A stretch of 64,000 nucleotides of DNA from Felis catus (taxonomy: Eukaryota): positions 78,990,001 through 79,054,000 of the forward strand of contig NC_058368.1 of the NCBI RefSeq assembly GCF_018350175.1, given 5' to 3'. A program made the translations under genes and the position numbers. This document shows, one piece after another, positions 4,353 through 61,339 of the stretch (position 1 is the stretch's first letter; every line of letters starts with the position of its first letter). The notes below the pieces were generated by a model. It saw nothing but the letters and a program-made list of their open reading frames with translations, was not told the origin of the DNA and searched no databases.

Positions 4353-7300
4353 AGGAATACTTTATTTATATGATAATCTAATTAACAGTTTGGTCTGTCC
4401 TTAGCTCACTGCCTTCCTAAGGAGAATGTGCTTGCTGTTGAAAACTGCCCCATTCTAATGCGGTGTGTTTTGTGCAGGCTGTGGACGATGTCTTAGCTAG
4501 ATAAGAGTGACGGTGGAGGGAAATGAACACACCAGCAGTCTCAGTAGCGAACCTCTGAGCGAGGCCTTGAAAGGTCCCCCGAGAATTTTCCACGGTGGCC
4601 TGGTGCCTAGATGCTTGTCTGCTCACCCCTGATCCCGCCTGCAGTAAAGCCTGGGAGTTGTCACAGTTACCTGTCCAGCCTACAGTGCGATGTCTGCTTG
4701 TGTTCATTCCTCCTCCTCTCACCCGTGAGGCTGCACGTCCCTGTCCGGGTGCTGAGGTCCACTGTGCTCACTCCACAGGGTTCACATAAGGGTACACATG
4801 AGATGCCCTGGCACACACGGTCCTTCGGGAATGACTAGTTCTTAGCGCTTTGTTCCACTGCCTTCTCTCAGCCCTGCCAGGCCCTGCATCATTCTCTTTG
4901 CTTTTCTTTTCACCTTCGAGAGTTTCGTTCTCTTTCTTCAGGTGCTTTGCACAGTGATGAACATGGTTATCTATCCCTGTCGTTTCCTGAGCTTCAGAAC
5001 AGGTGGGCGCATCTGAGCCATTAGCACCAAAACAGGAATAGCCAGAGTGAGCACCTGGGAACAGGGGGGCTGGGGGCGGGGAGTCAGTCGGGGTGCAGTC
5101 TGGAGGGGAAACTGGAGTACTCTCCTCAAGGAGCAGAGTACGGAGAATAGCTTCCATAGGCAACATGGAGACAGACAAGTGACATCGAGGTGACCAGAGA
5201 CTTGTCCCAGGGGATGCGACCACTGCCTCCGAGACCAGAAAAGGAAGGGAAGAAGAGATACCCCGGATGCTGTCGCTGAGGGCAGCGTGCCCCAGGAGAA
5301 CTGGGGCCTGGGAGAGAGGGCTCTGGGGTTAAGAACGGAATGACTGTGCTGGGACGGAACAGTCTCTCTGAGGGTTCTCCCCTCTTTTCTCCAGCCTGTG
5401 GCTCCTGCTGCAGCCTGGCTACAGGCCTGGGTCTGACCATCGCTGGGCAGACGAGGGCAGTTCCCCGGCCAGCAGACTGTGCAAGTAAATAGGACAGGGC
5501 ATCCCCAATCACATCACAATGTGTGGCCAGTCCTTTTTTTTCTTAAAGAGCGTGCATAGACAAGAATCGATTTGCTAGATGACAGACAGATTAATATTGG
5601 CTTTCTCTGAGAAAAGGGATTTTTTACTTTATTTTCACTTCGTTATTTTTATCATTTTCCCAATTTTATAAACACACGTGTTGCATTTTATAAGGTGTTT
5701 GTAAAATATAAAAGATTATAAAAAGACTTGCCCCTAGCTGTTTTCCTTGATTTGTTTTTCCAAATGTAGTCTTTGAACCCCGACAATGTCCTCAATCTGA
5801 TGGGGACTGCATGTAGTCACCTTGGCTCTTAGCCACATCGGAGGCAATCTGAAAGCGTAAGTAGGTGCTATCTACTTGTGCCCATTTACTCTGTTCATGC
5901 ATAGCCCGTTCCCATTCCCTTAAAATAATTTTCTGTATCGTGGGCTATGCTGGCAAAATCACCAAACTTCAGTGTGAACTGGCCCCAGTGAACATTAAAT
6001 TGAATAAAGAAGGAACTGATTTTCAGAGAAGCTGCCGTGCCCGCAGCGAAGGATCCGTGCGTCCCATAAGTGTGTTTTAGGTCGGCGGGTAGAACCTAGA
6101 GTGAGAAGTCTTCTTTAGGACCCTGGGTCCGTCCCCCCCCTTCTGCTGTAGCACGCTCTTTTTATTCTCATGTCCCCAAACTGCCAGCACAGGCCGTGGC
6201 TTCCGTCGGGTACCACGACAATCAGTTGAAAAGCACCGAGTTCTCTCACTACTGTCTCAGATAAAAATAATTGAAACTCCTGTCTCTGGAGCTCACAGCT
6301 GTTTACAAAATGCTAACTATCCTAAGTGGGGGGCGGGGGGGAGGGGAAAGGTTGGCATCGCATATAATTATAGTGTAAGTCTCATTTTCAACTGATCGGC
6401 AATTTTAAAATATGCCAATATCTACTGGAATCACTGTTCTATATCTAAAATGCCCAGGAAACACTTCTCTGCAAACCCCATCTCTGGGCCCCCTTGCTCG
6501 TTGCCGGCATCGCATGGAGATTCCCAGAGCAGCCTAGGCCACCGATCCCCGGAGCCGTGATTCTCCTACTAGAAGGTGCACCAGAAATCAACTGGGAGCG
6601 AGTGAGAAATGCAGCTTCCTTGGTTCCACTCCCACAAGTGATGAGTAAAGAGGCCCGGGAGGGAGTCTAAAGTATGTGGTGTGTATTTAGCCCCAGAGAG
6701 TGTCCTCCTGTGGGCAATCTGCGAAGCATGTTTGCAGAGACACTGGGGGTATTAGTGCATGGTAGGTGCTCGGGACCCCTCCCACCTTTGGCTTCGGGTT
6801 CCTTGGCGATTTCACCAAGCAATGAGCCTGGCAGCCTTCAGTCGGGAAGAGAGTGCATGTGGTTGGCGTTTCCTAAGTCTTCTTTGTGGACCCAGGAAAC
6901 GAGGTAGCTGGATGAGGCGTGATTCGTAGCCATGGTGAAAGCTTTATTCTTTTACATATATAGCTAACGTAATTTGTCTCTTAATTGTGTGTAGTGTAGT
7001 GCCGGAGTGTTACAGCAAGTACTTTCCAGAGAGCGGCGCACGGCCCCTGCTCCCTGGTTCCCACCGCACCCCCTCCTTCAGCCCCCCACACAGAAGCATT
7101 TGCAGGAGCCTTGCTCACTGCTGAAACAGAAGCAAAATGCTAGGTCTTCCGGAGTCGTTTCATTGAGCGGACTCCTTCCAAAGGAGATCTTTAAAGACGT
7201 GACAGCTTCCTTAAAGATTTGTATTGGGCCGTATGCATATAAATGTCTCTATTACATGCATGAGGGACGCCGCCACTTAAAGCATGAATCCTATCTCCCA

Positions 7301-15242: not shown

Positions 15243-15318
15243 GTAACGTATGAAATTGTCGGAGCAATTGAAAAAAATAAAGACTCCCTTTCACAGAATC
15301 TTCTATTTGTAATGAAAA
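15243..15318 (+). CDS. MYO16: MYO16 coding exon (76 nt, phase 0 to 1), motor domain: [25 protein letters not shown]
   Basis: Acceptor ttttcttttgttatAG, donor AAAA|gtaagt. The translation carries the myosin (HYAG)xVxY...KNKD motif and splices in frame to the next exon. Confidence 0.95.
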
Positions 15319-16528
15319 GTAAGTTTTCCCCCTATGGTTAAAATGCCACACATTCTTTATTTCTCCGTGGCTCCGTCTCTGAACATTGTCCTTGGTAATA
15401 TGCCACCAGCTACAGAATAATTGAAATATCTCTTACATCCTAAAGCCCAGAATATTAAAGAATGGATCTTGCCACACTGGACATTGGCTACAATTTAATT
15501 TGGAGTCTAGTAGAAACCATAATTTAACGAAGCTTTTAGCAGATAGAAATATAAAATACCTTTACCACTCTAGCGATATGAATATAAAAAAGCTCTTTTG
15601 TGACGACTAATGAAGACGAATACAGCTTCCAAAATTATTTAGGCCACAGCAGGGTGAATTCCATTACTTAAGATGACTCTGGAGCACACCTAAGGGTGGT
15701 ATTTTATTCTTACGTACTTTCAGTTATAAAGAATTAAAGCCCACGGAGCAGAGGGAGTGTATGAATTTATATACACACACATACGTGCGTGGATGCATGT
15801 ATCAGTGCAAATTTATAGACCCCATCTACTCAGTGAATCTTAGCCCTTTAGGCGCATGTATCTGTTTCTACACAACATGTAAGTTACTATATGGCATTTA
15901 CATGTGGTGCGTTTGTGTGTACCAGTATGTATCTTCTGCCTCCTCTAGCAATTCTTTTCTTATTAGCAGTTCTGCAGGGCTTCTCATTTTCCAAACAACC
16001 TGTTCAGTGGATCAAAATATATCATCTTTTGTGCTGCAAGTTGCTCTAAATGAACGGAGTCCCTGATAGCGATAGACCTTCATGAGATAGTTAAGTGCCT
16101 CCGAGCTGGAAACAAGACATCCGTGTCACCGCTGGTTTGAGGCACATACTTACCTCCAATCAAGCAGAGCAGATGCACAATGTAGTTTTTCACAGGGAAT
16201 TACTCTGCTTGTCTCTCAGACCTTTGCTTACCGAGTTCTCCTGAAACGGAGACTGGTGGGGAAGGCGTGAGATTGGAAGAGTATCATGTAGAAAGACAGA
16301 ATTGAAATAGGTGACCCTACTAATTATCATTGCAAATATATTCCTTCTAGTTTTTAATGACGTCAACTTCCATTTGGAGTCATATAAATAAATGACCTTT
16401 CAAGTCATATATTTTTTGAAGATCTAATCTATAGTGTGTTTTTTGAAGTCGGTGCCGTGCCTTCTTTACTTTTGTATTTCAGGCAATGGAATATATATTT
16501 TGAAAGAGAATGTGGCGGTTAGTGATAT

Positions 16529-16750
16529 CAAATTATTTTTATTTTTTTAACATTTATTTATTATTGAGAGACAGACACTGAGCATGAGCAGGGAAGGGGC
16601 AGAGAGAGGGGGAGACACAAGAATGCGAAGCAGGCTTCAGGCTCTGAGCCATCAGCACAGAGCCCCACGGGGGGCTCAAACTCACAAACTGTGAGATCAT
16701 GACCTGAGCTGAAGTCGGAGGCTCAACTGACTGAGCCACCCAGGCGCCCC
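16529..16750 (-). mobile_element. CAN-SINE (Fc2-like)
   Basis: Reverse-strand SINE; 16-nt TSD tggcgg(t/c)tagtgatat at 16513-16528 and 16751-16766. Confidence 0.93.
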
Positions 16751-16959
16751 TGGCGGCTAGTGATATTGTGATTATCTGCTTATCTTCACACCGTCCCTGT
16801 ATTTTGAAGTCATTCTTTTGTGTACACTTGCTAATAAGCTCCAAGAAAAAGGAAGTGAGTCTTGTTTTATTCCAAATGCCTTCAGCTGAAGAAGATACAT
16901 CTGAACAAGAGGATGAAATTTACAGTGTCTTGTTATAGGCAAATGGGAGATGTTTTCTA

Positions 16960-17150
16960 TAAAGGACAAGAGAATAAACACTTTACGCTTTGCAAGCTGT
17001 AGGTCTCTGTTGCAGCTACTCAAGTCTGCTGTTATAATGAGGGAGCAGGTGTAGACAGCACAATTGGACAGGTCTGCGTTCCAGTAAAACTTTGTTTACA
17101 GAAACAGGCCACGAGCCAGATTTGACCCACAGGCCATGATTGCTCACCTA
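16960..17150. mobile_element. MER58-like hAT-Charlie remnant
   Basis: ctctgttgcagctactcaa...gttccagtaaaactttgtttacagaaacaggc...ccagatttgaccc resembles the recalled MER58A consensus. Confidence 0.65.
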
Positions 17151-17569
17151 TTCTATCATGTAAACAAAAGAGGCATGGTTATGATAGTATTTTATTAATC
17201 TGTAAAATGTTTTGATGTCGTAAGTAATTGTTAAAAGCAAGTGTAATTTATAGATACTGTTTTTTTTTTATTTTCGAGTACCTTGCAAGGTACTTTGTAG
17301 TATCTAATTCAGTCTTCATATTATCAAAAAGCTCACACATTGGGAAGGTGGTAGGGTCTGTTGCGGGATCTGAACAAACATACCTTTGTTTGTGTGATAC
17401 CTGGTCAACAGCTATTGTGTCTTTTACCTCTGAGCGTCTCCACAAACCTGCTCATAAACGGCACACCAAAGTTAGCTTATCCCGATTTGCTAGCAGGAAG
17501 ACACTCGATGTGATAACGTCTGTAGACCCCTGCAGGGGATGCTTCCCAGTCCAATGTAAACTGGTGATG

Positions 17570-18880
17570 TTGAAACGATTTCAAGTTTAAAATTACAAAA
17601 TTAGTACCAAGAACACCCAAATGCCCTTCCCCAGATTTACTTTCCTCTCTTCATTTCTCTTCCTCTATCTTGTCCCATCTTCCCACCCTGTCTTCTACTC
17701 CCCCGTCCCTTCCCTCTGTGTGCCTGTGCACGTGTGTGTGCGTGTGTGTGTGCATGTGCATGTGCATGTATTTTCTGAACCATTTGAGAGTAAGCCACAG
17801 GCATCTTTCTGCCGACACACCTTGGTATGCATCCTGAGATCAAGGACAATATCTTACAAAACATCAGTACTATCAGAGTTCTGAACCTTGACACGATCCT
17901 AATGTCTAACCCCCACTTCCTATCTCTGTGCCGCTTACCCCCGCCATGTCTTTCATAATGATTTCCCCCCAGTTCAAGGCCAGTCACTGCACTGAGTGCC
18001 ATTTCCCTCCTGCCTTCTTTCATCGGGGACATTTTCTCTGCTTTTCTTCTTCTTTCGTGACTAACATTTAAAACCTAAAGGCCAGTTATTTTGAAGGCTG
18101 TCCCTCAATCTGGATTTATTTGCAGCTTCCTCACGTGGGTGTCAGCCCGTCCCTGCTCGGTGGGAACCCCACAGAGGTGCTGGCGGGTCCTCAGCCCCTC
18201 CTGTTTGGAGAACACAGTGACAGTCTGAGACCCTACTGGTGGCACGGCCTTGTTAAGGGGGCATCCTTCCGGCTTCTGTAATTGAAAGCTGCTGTCTCCC
18301 TCTGTAGCTGATAAGTAGCTTGTGAGGGAGGTGAGGCAAGGAAATATTGTCAGACCGTCATCCGCTGGCTGGGGTGCAGGAATGATTCTTGCCTAAATCA
18401 ATGATGCCTCTTATGGTCGCGCTATTGTGATTTTCTGCTCCCCCCACCAATTTTCCCATCAATAGTAACATTCAACTGTACGATCTCCCCTTTGTCATTC
18501 ATTGATGAATTAGACTGCTATCAGTATGGACTCATGGATTCTTTTTCATTCAATGAATCACAGTCTATGACTATCTTTATTTTGATGCTAAAATTGCTCA
18601 AGACATGGCCAGTGAGAATCCCCTCAAGCCAGCCCCTACGTTCTTTTTCAGGTTCTCATGATCTTTATTAGCACTGTCTTATAGTCCTGCCTTCCAAAAT
18701 GTTCTGGGATCATCTTCTACGCCTCAGAATCAGCTGTGTGCCTGACACGCTTACGTTTATCATAGACAAGAATGGTATTAAGGAACACTGAGGGCTGGGG
18801 GCTTGTGAGCTCATTGCTACTGGATTGTCCTTGCTTTTAGGCCCCTTCTGAACTAGACAATTAAAGATATACAGGTAACA
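17570..18880 (-). mobile_element. Old L1 (L1MC/L1ME-type) 3' UTR remnant
   Basis: Recognisable blocks such as ttttctgaaccatttgagagtaag and cagtatggactcatggattcttttt. Confidence 0.55.
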
Positions 18881-18917
18881 GACAGAGATGCAGCCCTGTA
18901 TTAAAAATCATGAATTT

Positions 18918-19135
18918 TGGGGTGCCTGGGTGACTCAGTCGGTTGAGCGTCCGACTTTGGCTCAGGTCATGATCTCACGACTGGTGAGTTCGAGCCCTGC
19001 ATCGGGCCCTGTGCTGACCCCTCAGAGCCTGGAGCCTGCTTCAGATTCTGTGTCTCCCTCTCTCTCTCTCCGCCTAACGCACTCACATTCTGTCTCTGTC
19101 TCTCTCAAAAATAAACATTAAAAAAAATTTTTTTA
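18918..19135 (+). mobile_element. CAN-SINE (Fc2-like)
   Basis: Full SINE body; TSD aatcatgaattt. Confidence 0.92.
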
Positions 19136-20130
19136 ACAATCATGAATTTATCCTGAAAGCTCTAATTTTCATCCAGTACCACAGAGCCCTTTTTTGCTTC
19201 CTGCATTCCATAATTGTTTCTCCCTCCTCTCTGACACTTCTCCCTGGTTCCCTGTTTGTTTATTAATGTAGTGACTTTCCTTTGTACGAATTGCCACTAA
19301 GTATGTTAGCCTGAGCAAGCAGAATAATATGGATGTGGAAAAGTTAGGAACACTGCTTTGCCACTGACCACTGCTCACTAGCTGATAGGTAAGCAGGATC
19401 CCAAATGATATGCACATTATTTCACACTTTAATCCTGTATAATCCTCAAGGTGGGTATGTGATGGTCACTTTGTAGAAAAGGAAACTGAAGCGTAAGGAT
19501 TGTCTACATACAGACATAGGGGACATGAGAAACGTGCCTTCTAGATTTCCAATTGCCGCATACAGTTTTCACTGTGCTATTCCAATTTGTAGCCAAAATG
19601 TATTAGAATTTGTATAACGTAACATCTGAAATATATCAGCGTTTCACATGTATAGCTTAACTGGATCAGAAAAAAGAGGGCATTTCTTTCCCCTGACACC
19701 TGGTACAACCAAATGAGGGGCTCCCACAGGTGTTTAAATACCACCTGGAGACGAGTTACATCCGAGGAAGTGTGTTTCTGGGGATGGGGAGCAGCTGGCC
19801 GAAGCCACAGGTCTTCAGGACTTGGCCAAGGGCACCGAAGGCCTGGAGACCCTAGAAGGTGAGGTGTGGCTCCCACGGCTACGAGAGCAGCGAGTGTCGC
19901 TCAGTTAGAGAACCAAGGGCCAGGTGCTCAAGTACAGGACAGGAGACCCGGGTTCAAGACTCCTGGCCAAGGGCAAGAGGAAGATCAGAATTCATCAAGT
20001 GTTACGATGAACGGTGGGGACAACAAAATAGGGGCAAAGGGGAAGACAGACGCCCTCAGTGACATCTTGCACATGGAAAGTTGTAGTGGCAGCGGCACTG
20101 GGGTGTTTACTGCTCATGTAAATGCTGATT

Positions 20131-20345
20131 TGGGGGCCCCTGGGGGGCTCAGTAGGTTGGGCGTCCGGCTTCGGCTCAGGTCATGATCTCACGGCCTGTG
20201 AGTTCGAGCCCCGCGTGGGGCTATGTGCTGACAGCTCGGAGCCTGGAGCCTGCTTCCGATTCTGTGTCTCCCTCTCTCTCTGCGCCCCCCCCCCCCCACT
20301 CACACTCTGTCTCTGTCTCAAAAACGTTAACAAATTTTTTTAAAA
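20131..20345 (+). mobile_element. CAN-SINE (Fc2-like), ending about 50 nt upstream of a MYO16 acceptor
   Basis: SINE body; TSD aaat(g/a)ctgattt. Confidence 0.92.
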
Positions 20346-20371
20346 AATACTGATTTTAATGCCACTCATGA

Positions 20372-20602
<231 letters not shown>

Positions 20603-21408
20603 TGAAGTTTGCTCAGTACGTTTACTTCTTTTTTTTTTTTTAATGCAGTCTTGAAAACTGATGGAAATAAATCATTTGATTTTTAAAATGAAAGACAGGT
20701 TGCCTGCCTGACATAGAACCAGCAGACAGAGGAAACATGATGGGAGAGTCCAGCAGAGGGAAAGTTCGATAGCAAGTAGAGCGTTAGTAATTTTATTGGT
20801 TGTCTCTGCAACATCCTGTTTATGCCTCGTCTCTGTGACTGTCCCTCTGATGAATGGGGAGTGACTGCAGCAACGTTAGCCTTCCGGGGAAGAAACTTAG
20901 CTACCTTATTCTGTTGACATTAATCACTGCTGAGGCTTCAGGTCTCCAAACAGTACATTGTGGTTTCTCTTATAGACCTTGTGTATTTCTCAGGTGCTGG
21001 AATATTTGTAGACTTTGTAGATTTCAAACGTACTTTCTTATCATCCTCACTTCCAGTGTGGACTTGCCCTCCACACGTGCAGTTACACTCACAACATAAA
21101 GGTTCTGACTGTTTGTACCATGGAAGTAAAAATTCAGCAGGGGTGTTTCAAACGGATAGGAAACAGGTAGGAAATGTGGCAACTTTAAGGACTCCAGTGC
21201 CTGACGGTAGCCTGGTTTGTTTTGCTTGTCTCCATCAAAACTGCAGAGAAGGGAAATCTGTTTGGGAAGCTGTCCAGGACAATCGGTTTTAGAAATTTGG
21301 TTGTTGTAGGTTGTTAGAATGCATTTAACTTACCAATTAAAATGAAAGCATAATTAGAATCAGCTCTATTTTAGAAGATTGGCAAGATGTATATAACATA
21401 TTAGAAAT

Positions 21409-21410
<2 letters not shown>

Positions 21411-21448
<38 letters not shown>
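21411..21448. repeat. (GT)n microsatellite
   Basis: About 19 perfect GT units. Confidence 0.97.
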
Positions 21449-21450
<2 letters not shown>

Positions 21451-23004
21451 AGCCAGTGGACCCTACAATTAGAGATCCTCCGATATAGTCATTTCTGCCC
21501 TGTGTGATCACAGGAATTCAATCTCACTGCATACAAAATGGCATTTTTTACATAAAAAAGACAAAGGGTTACTCTTTGTAAGGAAGATCTCTACTCCTGA
21601 GGGTTTCACTGAACCTTCTGGCCCTTCCTTCCTCAATCATGCTGGAAATCGAGAGCAAGAAATCACCACCCACCTCTACACTGTAATTTTTAACCTTAAT
21701 TATTAAACATTACCAGGCATAGATGCCATTAGTCTTTTCCCTAAAGGACTGCAAAACGAAGATAATTCACAGTGGTTCCTCCACCCAGAAAGGGAAATTG
21801 AGCGTTCAGTTTCAAGGGATGGAGATTTATTTATTACGATTCTTCCTTAAGTGTTCCATTCCTCACTTCCCTTCATACTGGCTGCATCTCTGCACGGCCA
21901 GCCCTGTGACTGGCAGCGTAGGGCTCTACCACTGTTTAACTGAGCATCACACTTGGCTTTGTGTTTGGAGAAAACCGGTTGATTTTGGACCAATTGCTTC
22001 CTTTTACATTCCCTTGTCAGTTACAATGGGTCATTCCAGCCTGACAGGTCATGTCAACGGGAAGAAATCAGCTGCTGTCATGGTAGCAATAGCACCACAT
22101 TGACTAAAGTCTTTTATCAGGCTCTCTTCTCCTACCAAGACCTCTTTATTGTAACATAAATGATTTGGGATCTATAGATACGTTGGTCTGAGTCTGCGTG
22201 ATTTTGTGAAATGCAAATGGTACATTAGTGGCTGCGGTTCCTTTTAACCCCTGGTGGAGTTTAATTAATTACCTTCTGCCCTTTATTTCTTTACCCACTG
22301 GCTCCATTTCCACTGACTTCTTTTATCTCCATTATCATTTAATCTTTGCTACATATGATTTTTTTTCTTTTAAGAGCCGTATATAATTACTCATCCAGGA
22401 AAACACAAATTGTTGCCATTTTTCAGACAGATAATTTACTAACTCCTTTTAGTAGTTAAAAAAAAAAAAAGAGGAGGAATGGGAAGAAATTGATTGTGGT
22501 TAAACTTAAGGGAATAAACCAGCGCTTGTTAGAACATCAAACCTTTATAGCATAACATAGTATCCTTTGGCCTGGTGGTAAGCCTGCTGCTTTGTGATAA
22601 ACACGCATAGTGATGATACACCCAGGGCTCCCAGGTGCTCGGACTGTGCTACCCAGCAAGGCAGGGTCGATGTTTACTCTCAAAATTAAAATAGATACAG
22701 GACGGCAACTTCTGTGTACTTGAAAGGCTGGCAGGAATGGTGTTCTTCTACGGGCAGTTTCAATTTCCCTGATTCATAGTACCGTCGCAGAAAAATCATT
22801 TGGTACTGATTTTTACAGTCTGAGTGAATTTATGTGGATGGGAGGGTAAATTTTTTCTTGTAAATGCAATTTAGTAAAATACTACTAAGATCGCTCCCTA
22901 TGTTGTACACCTGAAACTAATGTCAACTACAATTAAAAATCAGTCGATACATACTTACATAAATAAATCCGCTCACCCTTTCTTTCTTTTTATTTTCATT
23001 ACAG

Positions 23005-23085
23005 TTATTAAAAAAGAAAGGAACTTCTTCGTTTCTTCAAAGACTAGAATGGGGAGGTCCAGTCACGATTGCAACACAACTCAGG
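23005..23085 (+). CDS. MYO16: MYO16 coding exon (81 nt, phase 0 to 0): [27 protein letters not shown]
   Basis: Acceptor tattttcattacAG, donor AGG|gttagt. In frame with both neighbouring exons; TIATQLR corresponds to the myosin TVxxQF(R/K) helix. Confidence 0.93.
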
Positions 23086-23324
23086 GTTAGTGGACTTTTC
23101 GGTTTTCCAAAATTTAGATTTAGATCTTGTCAACTGTAGAGGGTTTCTGCATCATTTTCCCCCCCGTTTTTGACCGCTTGGAAACCAGTAAGCACTCACA
23201 CACGGACACACACAGCACAGAGAATTCAGACTAAATAAAAGAGTTGTGGGTTGAAGATAAACTCTTTACATTTTCAGGCAGTGTCTTCTTTGGAGAATCA
23301 GATGTGTTTTGCTTCTCTCCTTAG

Positions 23325-23530
23325 AAATCTCTAGCAGATATTATCGGAAAACTTCAGAAGCGCACGCCCCACTTTGTTCATTGCATCAAGCCCAATAACT
23401 CAAGGCTGCCAGATACCTTTGATAATTTTTATGTATCTGCTCAACTACAATATATCGGAGTCCTGGACATGGTGAAGATTATCCGATATGGATACCCTGT
23501 TCGCCTTTCCTTCTCGGATTTCCTGTCAAG
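23325..23530 (+). CDS. MYO16: MYO16 coding exon (206 nt, phase 0 to 2): [68 protein letters not shown](R)
   Basis: Acceptor gcttctctccttAG, donor AAG|gtaaat. Contains the hallmark myosin motifs PHF(V)xCIKPN and QL..GVL...R.GYP.R. Confidence 0.97.
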
Positions 23531-27890: not shown

Positions 27891-30296
27891 ATCTTTCATA
27901 GCTATGCCTGGGTGTATGAACTTCTATTATCTCCTCTCTCCCCAGTAAGTATATGTGAGTTCAGTGCGTTGAATAACATAATACCATCATTTTTATTTTC
28001 CATATTCTAGAATCGAGGGAAGAATAGTATGAGGCAATGCTGAGGAAATTGTTTTGAGGAGTCCTTAGAGCAATGGTACCTTGTACCTTCTCAGGTGCCC
28101 TGCCATCATTCTCCAGAGCTTTCTTTAATGCCCTGTGTGCTGGGGACATTGCAACTAACCCCGCTGCCCAGCAGAAATCCAGGCGCATGCCAGACCTTAG
28201 TGGCATGAATCTCTGCTCTCCTCGGAGCACTAGCCTCTATGTTTTCATCTTCTTCCAGATACAGCAGGGAAATGTGTTGGAATCTAGCTCTGGATGCGGG
28301 GTGGCAAGCTTGAGGGCTTTAGCCCCTCATTCATCTGTGGACTCGTTTGTGGTCAGCAGGGGACAGTGGGACGGCATCACTCCCGGGTTGGCCGTTTGAA
28401 GAGGTGACTTTATTTGGAAAAGACTCAGAAGGACTTGTCGGCGAGAAGCACGCCCTCGGATCTGTGCTCTGACACTGGGGCTGGATGAGATCCCTCTTAG
28501 AAATAGTCTGAATCATCTACTTGTTTAAATGACCCCGTCGTTGCCCAACAGTCAGGCTGTGAAGGAACACGGCCGTGATACGAAATCGGGCGCAGGGAGA
28601 GGGATGAAGCGAGCCACACTTCAGTTTCTTGGATTAAATTCACGGGTGGCGGCTGCCCAGTGAACAGTCACGAGAACTGTGGGTCTGAGTCAGGGATCTT
28701 GTAAAAGTTCCCCTCGTTCCGCCAAGTGCTGCCGGTTACTGTCGATGGGCTTTAATAGAAACGTGAGCTATTCAATGTCCCCAAAGCTTTAACTGGCAAA
28801 AGACATCTTTTCTTCAGGCTTAATTTTGCCAAGGCTTACTGTGTTCTTCCTGCTAAAGCCGATCCACAGGGTTGGCTTTGTGAAGTTTGGGAGGAGGGGA
28901 TGTGTTGTTCTTCAGTGAAATGTGAATCAGGAAAGGGAAGCGGAAGTCACAGGTTCTAGAAGCCATTTCAGTTTATATTCTTGCAGGGAGTCTGTTGTGC
29001 TCCTCAGTGGATTATGAATCGTAACGTCTCCCGTAATCTACTCTGGGCACCTGAAGACTTTTTCTATAAAGGACCAAAGGGTAACTGTCGTAGGCATGCA
29101 GGCCACACGGTCACTGCTGTGACAGCTCAGCCCTGCATGTGGCCCCACACAGCCCCAGACTGCGTGGGCACAAATGGGTGAGGGGGGGCTGTTCCAGACA
29201 ACCGTGCTGGCAGGAAATGGGGTGAGTGGCTTGTGCCCAAAGGCAGCTGACCCTTTATCTAGTCCCATGCACCCCCTTCCGGTGGAGCTGGGGGAAAGTT
29301 TCTATAGAAAGGGAGCAGGTAGGGAGAGGTGACTGATGTTTGCTTTGCTGCTTCTGTAATCTGGCTCAGATCTGTAATTCTGCTCTTGTGCATCACGTGT
29401 TCTCCCAGGACAGCATTCATTCACCCGTTCATTCATTTTTATCTCTTCCTTATATAACCTCCCATTTTTGTGTTATTGGAGCATTTTACTGCATCGATGT
29501 CATCAAGATGGGAAGTCACTGTCACCAGTGGCAGCATGGGCATCTTCCCCGCGTGTGACTGGTGCCCAATGGGTCAAGCTCCAGATCTACACTTTGCACT
29601 CATTATTCTGCTCCTCATAATAACCTTTTGAGACAACTCCTCTCATCACACAGATATTAGTCATTATGCCATTGCTAATTTCCGGCTTTGATGTAAATGT
29701 GCCTGGAGGGCGTTCATCAGCCCTGAGCAGGCACGGGCCATCACCAAGCACATCCTCACCACACCCCTATGACTCGCACTGGTGGTCGCATCCTGATTTG
29801 TAGCCGAGAAAATTCAGGTCCCAAGAGTTAGGGGCCGGCTCGCACCTCTCGTCCCTGACACTGTTTTTAGCCTCTCCCCGGTACCGGTCTTGTACTGACA
29901 TTGACCGTGTTCCCATCCACGTCTTCCACTACCGCGTGCTGTGCATCGTCTTCGTGCTTCATTGTCATCAGCAGTCACAGGCAGAAGCACCTCTACCTCA
30001 GTAGGGAGAATAAATCCCTGGAGATTTCTAAAATTCAGCCCTGCAGAGAGCCCTGCACTCTGGATTTTCTTTGCTCTATTTCCTGAAAACTGATCCAGTT
30101 AATTTCACCGAGTTTCCCACCCTCCCCAGCGACCTTGTGTATCCATGCAACGGCAGCATGCGGCTGGTGGAGGCAGTATGGGAGCATCAGTCAGGGCCTC
30201 TGGAAAAGAGCTCCAAGACAGTAGGAAAGCTCCTTGGAAGCACCGTTTCTCCTTGGAAACGGAGAACTGCACAGTCTCACTTAAAATAACAAGAGT

Positions 30297-40205: not shown

Positions 40206-43200
40206 TTAATTTATTTTTATACACCATATTTTACAGTACTCTTAAGTTTACAGCAAAACTGATTAGAAAATTAGAAGAGAGTTTCTCCCCCACACCCCTG
40301 CCCCCACACTGGGACAGCCTCCTCCATTATCAACAGCCCCCAGCAGAGTTTTGTTAAGTTTCTCTGAATTCTTGAGTGTGAATATAATTTATTGGCACAT
40401 TTCTTGTCACAATCAATGAACCTGCATTGACACTTCATCGTCATTCATATTCCGTAGTTTACATGACAGTTCATTCTTTACATGGTACATTCTGACCTTC
40501 ATTTCTGAAAGGTATTTATATGAGGTAAAGTATTTTAGGTTGACACATTTTTCTTCTAGTATTTTGAAGATATTACTTCTCTGTGTTGTACTCTTTCCAA
40601 GAAGAAATTGGCTGTCATTCATAATTTTGCTGTTCTGTACAAGATTTGCCTTTTTTCTTTTTGTGTGCTTTTAGGATTTTCTCTTTTTTACTACTTTTGA
40701 GTAATTTGACTATGATGCATTGTGGTGCATGTTTCTTCATGTTTTCTTGTGCTTAGGGTTCATCAGGGTGCTTGGATCTATGAGTTTCCTGGATCTATAA
40801 GTTTCTTGGATCTATGAGTTTACAGTTTTCATCAAATCTGGAAAATTTGTGTCCATAATTCCCTCAAGTATTTTTTCTGTCTACCCTTTTATCTCCTCTA
40901 ATTTAGATACTACAATTAATTACATGTTTATTAGGTACATAAAGTTGTCCCATCACTTGCGACATCACTGATGAGTGCAGATCACTGATACTCATCATTT
41001 TTTTAGGCTTGTTTCTCAGTTTCAATTTGGATAGTTTCTATTGCTATGTCTTCAGGTTCACTAAGCGTTTCTTCTGCAATGTCTAATCCACACTTAATCC
41101 AACCCAATGCATCTTTTGCCTCAGATACTATAGCTTTCACCTATAGAAGTCCAATTTGGAGTTTTCAAAAATCCTTCAATCTTTATCATATTTTGCCTTT
41201 CTTTTAGTATCTATTTGTCTACTAATTCCATTCTCTGCCATTTCTGGGCCAGTGTTGGTTGATTCATTTTTCTCTTTATTATAGATTGGATAGTTCTGCT
41301 TCTTTGCCTGCCTGGTAATTTTTTATTGAATACCAGACATTATGCATGTTACTTTTTCAAGTGGTACGTATTTTTGTATTTCTACAAATATTTTTGAATC
41401 TGGTCTGGAAAATAATGAAATCGCTTGGAAACAGTTTTTTGTTTTGACAGTTTGCTCTCATGTTTTTCTAGGGGGGACCAGGCCAGTACATAGCCTAGGG
41501 CTCATTATTTAATACTAATTATGCAAAATAATTGACTTCTTTGTTCAGTGCCTCATAAATTATGGGATTTTCACTCTGGCTGATGGGAACAGCCTTACTT
41601 CTTTTTATCTTTGCCCTGGGATGGTTCCCTCTCTTCCATTTGGATAAGTCTTTTATGGGACTTAGATAGTTTATTCACATGCATGTACTAACAGTATTCT
41701 GTTGGAGACTTGAGTGGGACTCTGAAGGTCTGTGGAATCTTCTCTTGGTGTAGCTTTCTCTTCTCAGACTATCTTCTCTGTGAACGCAAGCTACCTTGGC
41801 ATACCTGATCTTCCCAGGCCATGTCCTCAATTCAAGGACATCATCAAGCTTCACTTGGGATCACTCTTTAAGCCACAGTCTGGAATCTTCCCTCATGAAG
41901 TAATCTGGGAGGCCTTAAGGCTTACCTCCTTTGTTTCTTGTCTCTCAGGGATCACTACCTTTGCTGTGTGGTTTTCAGTGCTCTGAGAACCATTGCCTCA
42001 CATGTGTTATCAGGTTTTAAGTTGTTTATGGTTGGAGGGTAAGACCAGGCACTATTCCCCTATCCAGACGTGAAAGCAGATATCTGTAAATTTGTTTTTT
42101 TTTAATGTTGGGTTCCTACTAGATGGGAATTTTATCTATTAGCTTGTTCCTAGGCTATCTTGTGAGCACCTATAATCTATTCTTAAAACAGAGAACTTCC
42201 TGAAATGATGGTATAATTTGAAAACTTGTATTTTTTTAAAGATAATTTTGATAGTTTAGATAATGGCACACTTTTCTCCCTTGATTATTCAGATTATGTA
42301 TACTAATTTTTTCTAAACAGACTTGTATCTCTGTATAAAAATTAACATAGAGCAGCTGGTATTTTATGAAATGATGATGCTAGACAAGAGTTTTGGATAG
42401 GAAGTGGAGGCGAATACTATATTTGTTTGAACGTGCATGGGATTTTAATTAAGCTAAAATTAAGCACGTTAGAAATTGTCCAGGAAGCTGATGACTTTCA
42501 TTCTTATTCTTAGGGAATTCATGGGTTGGACGTTTCTATGACCAAAATGGTCAGAAATGCATATTTATGTATGGGATTCTGAACAGGCTTATGAACATTC
42601 TGCCCTCAATCCCATGCCAAAAAAATGCTTTGGCTCAAGAAAAAAGTGCCACCTGCCTTGCCCACAGTAGAATTTTAAACTTAGCAGGAAATCTCCTGTT
42701 CTCTTATTGATAATATACTAGTGCTTTAACACAGTTAAACCCTGAGACTTCAACAAATTCTTAAGACATTCCAAAAATTAGTAAGTAATGACAATAGGGG
42801 GATATGCTGTTTTAAAAGTACCTTTATCTCAGAAATCTTCACAGCAAGCATTACTTGCAAATATTGCTACAACCATTTAATCAGACATTTATAAGAATCA
42901 GGCTCAAAAATTAAGATTTAAGCAAATACCTCTGGCCCTTACTACATTTTATTGCCATTCCATTCCATTTTATTTATTCTACATTCTTTCCTTGGGATTC
43001 GCACACATTACTTATTTATTCAAGTATTTAATATTAAGAAAAGTTGCAATCATAAATAAAATTGAACTAAGTTAGATGTTATATTATGCATAGTATACTT
43101 TGTTACCCTCAAAAAGTTATTTTATTTCTTGCCCTAAATCTTGCTCAAGTGTTTCTAAAACCCTGGAATCTTGAAAGCTCAAAAAGTTGCTTATAAAAGT

Positions 43201-60324: not shown

Positions 60325-60427
60325 GTACAAGCCATTGGCCGACACGCTCCCGGTCGAGAAGAAACAGCTGTCTGCCGCGGAGAAATGTCGCCTTGTTCTC
60401 CAACAGTGTAAATTGCAAGGCTGGCAG
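60325..60427 (+). CDS. MYO16: MYO16 coding exon (103 nt, phase 2 to 0), converter: (R)[34 protein letters not shown]
   Basis: Acceptor ttgctttttcacAG, donor CAG|gttagt. Completes the FLSRY motif across a 36,794-nt intron (23531-60324). Confidence 0.93.
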
Positions 60428-61339
60428 GTTAGTGACCAGCAAGCTACTAACGTCGCAGTTCAGGACTTTTAAATAAGTGAGCTGAGTCATTGTGGGAGCC
60501 ACCGGTCTCAGTGGCATGAACTCTGATGTGTTTGGCAAGAGGGGACACTAAGCGTCTTCCCTGGAAACACATCACTCTTTCTGATTTACTGGTGTCAGCA
60601 GCATGGCAACAAACAGGGGGGGAGCCAGCGGGCTCCTCTTGGGGGGGCGGTGCGTGGCGTGGGGTTCCTGAAGCCTCCTTGTTTGCTTATGTCTCGGGGT
60701 GCAGCCTTGTCATTCAGGCTTCCTGAAGGATCAGAAAGAGAGCAGAAGTCAGAGAAGGCAGTTTGAGGACCTTGATTTCTCGGCTTCTGGTGGGTAGGTC
60801 ATCCGCATTCTGGAGACCCACTTCCTGGCCCCTCTGGGGTCGTCCAGTGTCTGTTTACTGCTTCTCTTCCCTGCTTCTCAACTGCCACACACTGACAACG
60901 TCACTGTCCCTTCAACCTCGCTTCTTGGCAGAAGCTTCATACATAACTGGAAACGTTTAATTCTTTTCTGTGACCCTCTGAGTTGGCGGAGTCCCAGGGC
61001 ACGGTGGGGACCCAGCCCCTCCTTCCAGAAGGGGGGAACATTAGGGAGACAGAATAGCCTGGGAGGGGCTCCCCAGAAGCAGTGGGGCACGCTGTAAGGT
61101 ATTAAACATCAGAATGCGATCCGTGACGAGTGTTGAGAACAGGAGGTTTGAAACTTCAAAGAATTGAGAAGGTTGTTGTGATGCAGGAGTAGGAAACAGA
61201 ATAGAGCCCAAGACACCAGGAGTTCCTGGATGTTTCTAGCTATAAAACAACCAAAGGTTTGCATGGGCGGCAAAGATCATGGCAGCTAGCGGCTTTGGCA
61301 AAACCCAACAATTACCAAAAAGCAGGCACAAGTCTCGTT

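Follow-up and report, generated by a model that had tools for sequence, protein, structure and literature searches.

A putative truncating alternative exon of MYO16 in the cat, interrupted by a SINE insertion

The DNA analysed here is a 64,000-nt stretch of the Felis catus genome (contig NC_058368.1, assembly GCF_018350175.1), below called the window. We favour, with moderate confidence, the reading that the splice acceptor with first exon base 16483 corresponds, in the cat, to the acceptor of a conserved alternative exon of MYO16 that truncates the protein. Such an exon would follow the exon ending in ...LLFVMK and would end the reading frame almost at once. Its product, as predicted by models from dog, horse, donkey, pig, peccary and mouse lemur, would have about 940 residues. 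It would retain the ankyrin, PP1c-binding N-terminus along with roughly three quarters of the motor, and would be missing loop 2 and the remaining motor as well as the IQ motif and NYAP tail. A sequence-only reading of the window had proposed at this site an alternative or poison exon, remodelled by a SINE and serving as a variant of loop 2. The truncating part of that proposal is upheld indirectly, by short MYO16 models from six mammals and by the horse and lemur tails; the loop-2 role is not. The open frame is the least meaningful feature of the site, and the acceptor that it appears to share with the short isoforms of other species is the meaningful one.

The gene in the window is MYO16, represented by five exons at 15243-15318, 20394-20569, 23005-23085, 23325-23530 and 60325-60427. 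The exon at 15243-15318 (plus strand, identified by tblastn) is a constitutive 76-nt motor exon that ends in ...LLFVMK and exits in phase 1; it appears to be the branch point of the long and short isoforms. The exon at 20394-20569 (plus strand) is the canonical 176-nt exon ending in ...YLELSK, and the 58 residues translated from 20396-20569 match MYO16 of Puma, Prionailurus and Felis catus with 100% identity. We take this exon to encode most of loop 2 from the general layout of myosin motors, as it follows the EKNKD helix region. Matching to MYO16 proteins bore out the phases that had been assigned to the 76-nt and 176-nt exons. The 20394 acceptor is the weakest of the five real exons (6.1 with the approximate matrix described below). 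A sense copy of the SINE family found in the candidate exon occupies 20133-20349 (plus strand) and ends about 44 nt before this acceptor, its A-rich tail lying at the expected branch point position of exon 20394-20569.

The candidate acceptor, a polypyrimidine tract followed by AG, occupies 16463-16482 on the plus strand, 1165 nt past exon 15243-15318. It reads TCTTTACTTTTGTATTTCAG/G, with 16483 as the first exon base (its upstream stretch can also be quoted as ...TTTGTATTTCAG/G, with the same first exon base). The opening 46 nt of the candidate exon (16483-16528, plus strand) contain the left copy of a target-site duplication, a weak donor and two stretches that match tails of short isoforms, namely 16489-16497 (GAATATATA, horse) and 16511-16519 (TGTGGCGGT, lemur). 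The weak donor, GCG/GTTAGT at 16517/16518 (plus strand), lies inside the left duplication copy. Two real MYO16 exons also have a T at position +3 of their donors (AGG/GTTAGT at 23083-23091 and CAG/GTTAGT at 60425-60433), and share the unusual GTTAGT with this inner site. The duplication is 16 bp long, TGGCGG(T/C)TAGTGATAT, with copies at 16513-16528 and 16751-16766 (plus strand) that agree at 15 of 16 positions, the single mismatch being the T/C. The rest of the exon, with the donor GAA/GTGAGT at 16854/16855, lies at 16767-16860 (plus strand), and the 2.43-Gb assembly has just one copy of the flank 16767-17000.

Without the SINE and one of the two duplication copies, an exon of 134 nt remains that is open solely in the frame entered in phase 1, where it encodes SNGIYILKENVAVSDIVIICLSSHRPCILKSFFCVHLLISSKKKE; the remaining two frames contain four and two stops. 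This SINE-less exon enters in phase 1 and exits in phase 0, as does the 176-nt exon. In the present cat genome the same phase property is held only by a 35-nt mini-exon ending at the inner donor. The distance from the acceptor to the 16854 donor is now 372 nt, and the sole frame-keeping donor is the weak one. With the SINE present the entered frame closes 22 codons in, where the T-rich end of the element supplies the TAA at 16548-16550. The restored frame continues past the 16854 donor to 16935, for 72 codons in total. Further downstream, an AATAAA hexamer at 16973-16978 (plus strand) precedes a GT-rich stretch near 17000. The hexamer is the lone canonical poly(A) hexamer within 2.4 kb 3' of the acceptor; with 79 such hexamers in the 64-kb window it is not significant by itself. 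The anatomy described by the sequence-only reading was thus confirmed, including the acceptor, the antisense SINE between duplication copies, the 134-nt stop-free exon in the MYO16 frame with its phases and its donor at 16854/16855, the inner donor with its 35-nt mini-exon running from phase 1 to phase 0, and the stop met on reading into the SINE.

The SINE at 16529-16750 lies on the minus strand, antisense to the gene, and has 23 further copies in the window, which are 69-87% identical to it. It has the two marks of an interspersed repeat, an A-rich tail, which appears as a T-rich run on the plus strand, and the target-site duplication. We take it to belong to a carnivore family of tRNA-derived SINEs; ARAGORN finds no intact tRNA in it. 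No acceptor of at least 5 bits on the approximate matrix lies within the element. The SINE is the origin neither of the candidate exon nor of its acceptor, which lies in unique sequence, 46 nt before the insertion. What the insertion does supply is the stop codon of the cat frame and 238 nt of additional exon length.

Splice sites were scored with position matrices that give approximate values. On this scale the 16483 acceptor reaches 9.8 bits and falls in the top 39 of the 4558 AG sites of the window. The 16854 donor (8.0 bits) falls in the top 46 of 3583 GT sites and the 16517 donor (5.5 bits) in the top 200 by the same GT-site scoring. The real MYO16 exons have acceptors of 6.1-11.4 bits and donors of 6.2-8.5 bits with the same matrices, and the candidate splice sites match the real ones in quality. 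At the thresholds of the candidate, however, the plus strand of the window holds 10 acceptor-donor pairs spaced 50-300 nt apart, of which 4 are open-frame, and the minus strand holds 4, of which 1 is open-frame. At least 45 open codons follow 12.4% of 4526 AG sites, and 72 codons are reached by 3.5%. Since good pairs and open frames are this common in the window, the anatomy by itself is not beyond chance. The frame that overruns its donor looks accidental rather than bound to an exon, and the 16854 donor and the 16973 AATAAA are each expected by chance at such spacing. Intronic pairs that score equally and have open frames occur at 4942-5002, 28987-29177 and 41949-42038 (all plus strand); we took them for pseudoexons.

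Short MYO16 models in other mammals bear more directly on the site. From 25 listed protein clusters we examined 222 proteins (P0001-P0003 and P0119-P0337). Ten of them, from six mammals, diverge exactly at the counterpart of the 15318 border and stop 4-7 residues after ...[FS]VMK. The tails are RCGGI in mouse lemur (P0149), SYEYI in both horse (P0199) and donkey (P0201), SCRYTSV in four pig proteins (P0247, P0249, P0250, P0253), SCRYISV in a fifth (P0251), KTSV in Chacoan peccary (P0252) and RGCI in dog (P0336). Among the other 212 proteins, 192 continue canonically and 20 are without the motif. Up to the border, short and full-length proteins of the same species are identical in dog (935/935), horse (936/936), donkey (958/958) and lemur (935/935). 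By Pfam, the short forms retain the ankyrin repeats together with positions 2 to 517/518 of the 679-position Myosin_head profile, and lose the remaining motor and the NYAP tail. UniRef was the sole source of the ten short entries, which come from one annotation source; from the style of the accessions we infer that this source is Ensembl. Their UniRef accessions include A0A8C0PPU0, A0A3Q2KRD4, F1RLN9 and A0A8C5UN58. Some of the entries may be mutual projections rather than independent transcript evidence.

We considered retention of the intron as the source of the tails; in cat, read-through would give SKFSPYG followed by a stop. An intron starting with GT forces serine (AGT) as the first residue, and the tails beginning with R and K without this serine exclude read-through. 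The short models therefore splice from the counterpart of 15318 into another exon that stops at once. The listed NCBI (XP_) isoforms of felids and other carnivores include no tail of this kind, which is weak evidence against the exon, as truncated isoforms are often omitted by annotation pipelines. A literature search for a motor-truncated MYO16 isoform, or for the candidate exon, found no paper. Among unrelated peculiarities of the models, P0003 (Felis catus) and P0148 (Vulpes lagopus), at 1973 aa each, exceed the usual forms of 1835-1885 residues by about 95 residues, and the surplus is located away from the junction after ...VMK. P0082 (Phodopus roborovskii Myo16, 1469 aa) reads ...HYAGRVT/SENVVI and is without most of the peptide of the 76-nt exon, a gap due to an error in the model or else to a distinct splice form.

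The tails were back-translated to degenerate DNA, anchored at the first exon base and aligned after every AG of the window. For the horse tail SYEYI the best position is 16483, ranking 1 among 4555 plus-strand AG sites, and none of the 4562 minus-strand sites reaches its score, so that the candidate is the best of 9,117 AG sites on both strands. The cat sequence GC AAT GGA ATA TAT A.. fits the horse pattern GY TAY GAR TAY ATH with one gap, a 1-nt difference that puts the cat in the longer open frame. The lemur tail RCGGI matches at the AG with first exon base 16509, 26 nt downstream of 16483, with rank 5 of 4555; its score is also reached by 7 of 4562 minus-strand sites, and the cat reads K C G G stop at 16509. 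The tails of pig, peccary and dog rank 577, 655, 1162 or worse of 4555 and are uninformative. The dog, the nearest relative, thus fails to map; an indel in dog, or use of another AG there, would explain this. An unanchored test on a sample of 1500 of 4556 AG sites gave 0.004 for horse, 0.023 for lemur, 0.76 for pig, 0.95 for peccary and 0.54 for dog, and 0.037 for the five tails summed, which is much weaker than the anchored result. An exact-frame scan of the AG sites in 15319-23004 with the five tails returned three loose matches, of which only 16509 (KCGG followed by two stops) has any support. The site was fixed beforehand, which makes it very unlikely that the joint fit of the horse and lemur tails, as judged from these alignments, is a coincidence. 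A scan of metagenomes for the orthologous intron yielded a single contig, from JGI (L002:1214-1270, minus strand), which carries the MYO16 ...NLVFVMK exon. Its flanking repeats look avian; we took it for bird host DNA in a metagenome, useless for the mammalian intron.

The role originally proposed for the site was that of a coding exon for loop 2, mutually exclusive with 20394-20569 and later remodelled by the SINE. The equal entry and exit phases, the frame that is open once the SINE is removed, and the length of the restored frame, at 72 codons attained after few AG sites of the window, speak for it. The resemblance to the loop-2 exon that had been seen in KENVAVSDIV turned out to be of chance level, with a BLOSUM62 local score of 20 that 1198 of 2000 shuffles equal or exceed. 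Likewise 55% of 676 stop-free 45-residue intronic windows score at least as high as the candidate peptide against the loop-2 exon peptide, and 346 of 1000 shuffles score at least the observed DNA-level similarity between the candidate and the 176-nt exon. The two exons thus match in phase and show neither the relatedness nor the similar length of a mutually exclusive pair (134 versus 176 nt). The candidate peptide is hydrophobic and rich in Cys and Ile (GRAVY +0.56), unlike that of the real exon (-0.30). The open frame disregards the donor, and the frames in other mammals end after 4-7 codons. No isoform with the candidate exon occurs among the 222 cluster members or among 106 proteins with the ...VMK motif. 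The latter are the members with the motif L[LFI]F[VI]MK in a set of 116 retrieved by searching with the real exon, and all 106 continue canonically; given that query, they carry the canonical exon by construction. Together with them, 298 motif-bearing proteins other than the short ones have the canonical [TAS]S[ED]N exon directly after ...VMK, and all listed felid isoforms (P0001-P0003, P0119-P0132, P0143) read FVMK/TSENVV. The right part of the candidate with its read-through (P0117) has no homologue among proteins of 33-107 residues. Its sole match among 1.84 billion representatives, P0118 (E 8.6e-5 over 8 stretches), is repetitive and unrelated and was set aside as a chance match of low complexity. 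Five Logan/ENA entries that match the 176-nt exon (P0004, P0025, P0033, P0098, P0103) were also rejected as mRNA evidence, being genomic open reading frames that run into the intron. With no similarity, a frame that overruns its donor and no isoform carrying the peptide among those examined, the reading as an alternative loop-2 exon is close to refuted.

Two further readings concern the use and the origin of the site. It may be orthologous to an exon used elsewhere and yet be silent in felids, either because the SINE disrupted exon definition or because the exon was never more than marginally used. We regard this as possible and rather unlikely. It agrees with the uniform felid isoforms, with the result that a 40-residue query of the cat tail including the intron translation retrieved no protein at E up to 10, and with the 372 nt that now separate the acceptor from a donor while the only frame-keeping donor scores 5.5 bits. 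The acceptor and its pyrimidine tract are nevertheless intact and strong, a last exon would not need the donor, and the frequent omission of truncated isoforms from annotation makes their absence a weak argument. Alternatively the site could be a pure chance pseudoexon, the horse and lemur fits being coincidental or the models artefactual. The ten comparable plus-strand pairs with their four open frames, the 12.4% of AG sites followed by at least 45 open codons, the three of five distinct tails that do not map to the site, and a combined unanchored value of just 0.037 would all agree with this. We nonetheless consider it improbable: the horse tail selects, out of 9,117 AG sites, the one that had been chosen beforehand, the lemur tail falls 26 nt away with rank 5 of 4555, and the short models of six species diverge exactly at the border with species-specific tails.

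If 16483 is the acceptor of a conserved truncating exon, as we favour, the exon could act in either of two ways. It could be an alternative last exon whose transcript is polyadenylated within the intron, perhaps at AATAAA 16973, or an internal poison exon at 16483-16854 that would lead to nonsense-mediated decay. The data fit both options equally, and the 16854 donor and the AATAAA do not discriminate between them. An in-frame stop lies within the exon in either case, after 22 codons in cat and after 4-7 codons elsewhere. In the cat lineage, the 1-nt difference from horse would have prolonged the open frame by accident, and a carnivore SINE would then have inserted 46 nt past the exon start, giving a predicted cat tail of SNGIYILKENVAVSDIKLFLFF before the stop. 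MYO16 is a neuronal myosin, and a recurrent isoform ending within its motor would be a protein that has the PP1c-binding ankyrin domain without a complete motor or, alternatively, would serve as a switch coupled to splicing that reduces the output of MYO16. The cat locus would in that case show a SINE that changes the stop codon and length of an exon and leaves its acceptor untouched. We speculate further, and with little confidence, that placental mammals share a conserved and regulated MYO16 isoform of about 940-960 residues, made of the ankyrin/PP1c module and a motor stump without loop 2, which could serve as a motor-independent regulator of PP1c or as a dominant inhibitor of full-length MYO16, and whose C-terminal tail and 3' end the SINE rewrote in felids.

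Several known systems resemble the candidate in part. Mutually exclusive exons of motor domains, as in Drosophila Mhc, are as a rule duplicates of one another, alike in length and recognisably similar. The candidate shares its phases with the neighbouring exon and sits in the preceding intron as such pairs do, but has no similarity to that exon and differs from it in length. Intronic pseudoexons are good pairs of splice sites that are not used. The candidate is like them in its strong sites, its accidental open frame and its several equals in the window, and would differ from them in that its site appears to coincide with the terminal exon of short isoforms annotated elsewhere. Antisense SINE insertions can alter exons, as in the exonisation of Alu and of carnivore SINEs. 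Here too the SINE is antisense and tRNA-derived, has a T-rich end, and alters both the length and the stop codon of a putative exon; in contrast to exonisation, the acceptor lies 46 nt upstream in unique sequence and the exon is not made by the SINE.

Alternative processing that shortens the C-terminus has a precedent in MYO16 itself. In the accessible text of PMC7464383, Myo16a (1322 aa) and Myo16b (1912 aa in rat) are the sole two isoforms described, and that text makes no mention of a motor-truncated short form. As far as the same text goes, these two isoforms diverge downstream of the IQ motif and have the whole motor, whereas the short form stops at about position 518 of the 679-position Myosin_head profile. 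A further parallel is offered by cryptic last exons. The available portion of PMC7997972 describes such exons, repressed by SFPQ, in long introns of neuronal genes, and that of bioRxiv 10.64898/2026.01.30.702498 describes physiological cryptic last exons across vertebrates, the sequences of which are 'poorly' conserved. MYO16 is not named in the literature that we found on these exons. Poor conservation, as worded in that portion of the preprint, would fit MYO16 tails that differ between species. The candidate resembles cryptic last exons in having an intronic acceptor in a long neuronal gene, a stop within a few codons and a C-terminal truncation; unlike them, it has here only a candidate poly(A) site, and an internal poison exon fits equally. 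The kind of feature is ordinary, and its place is new.
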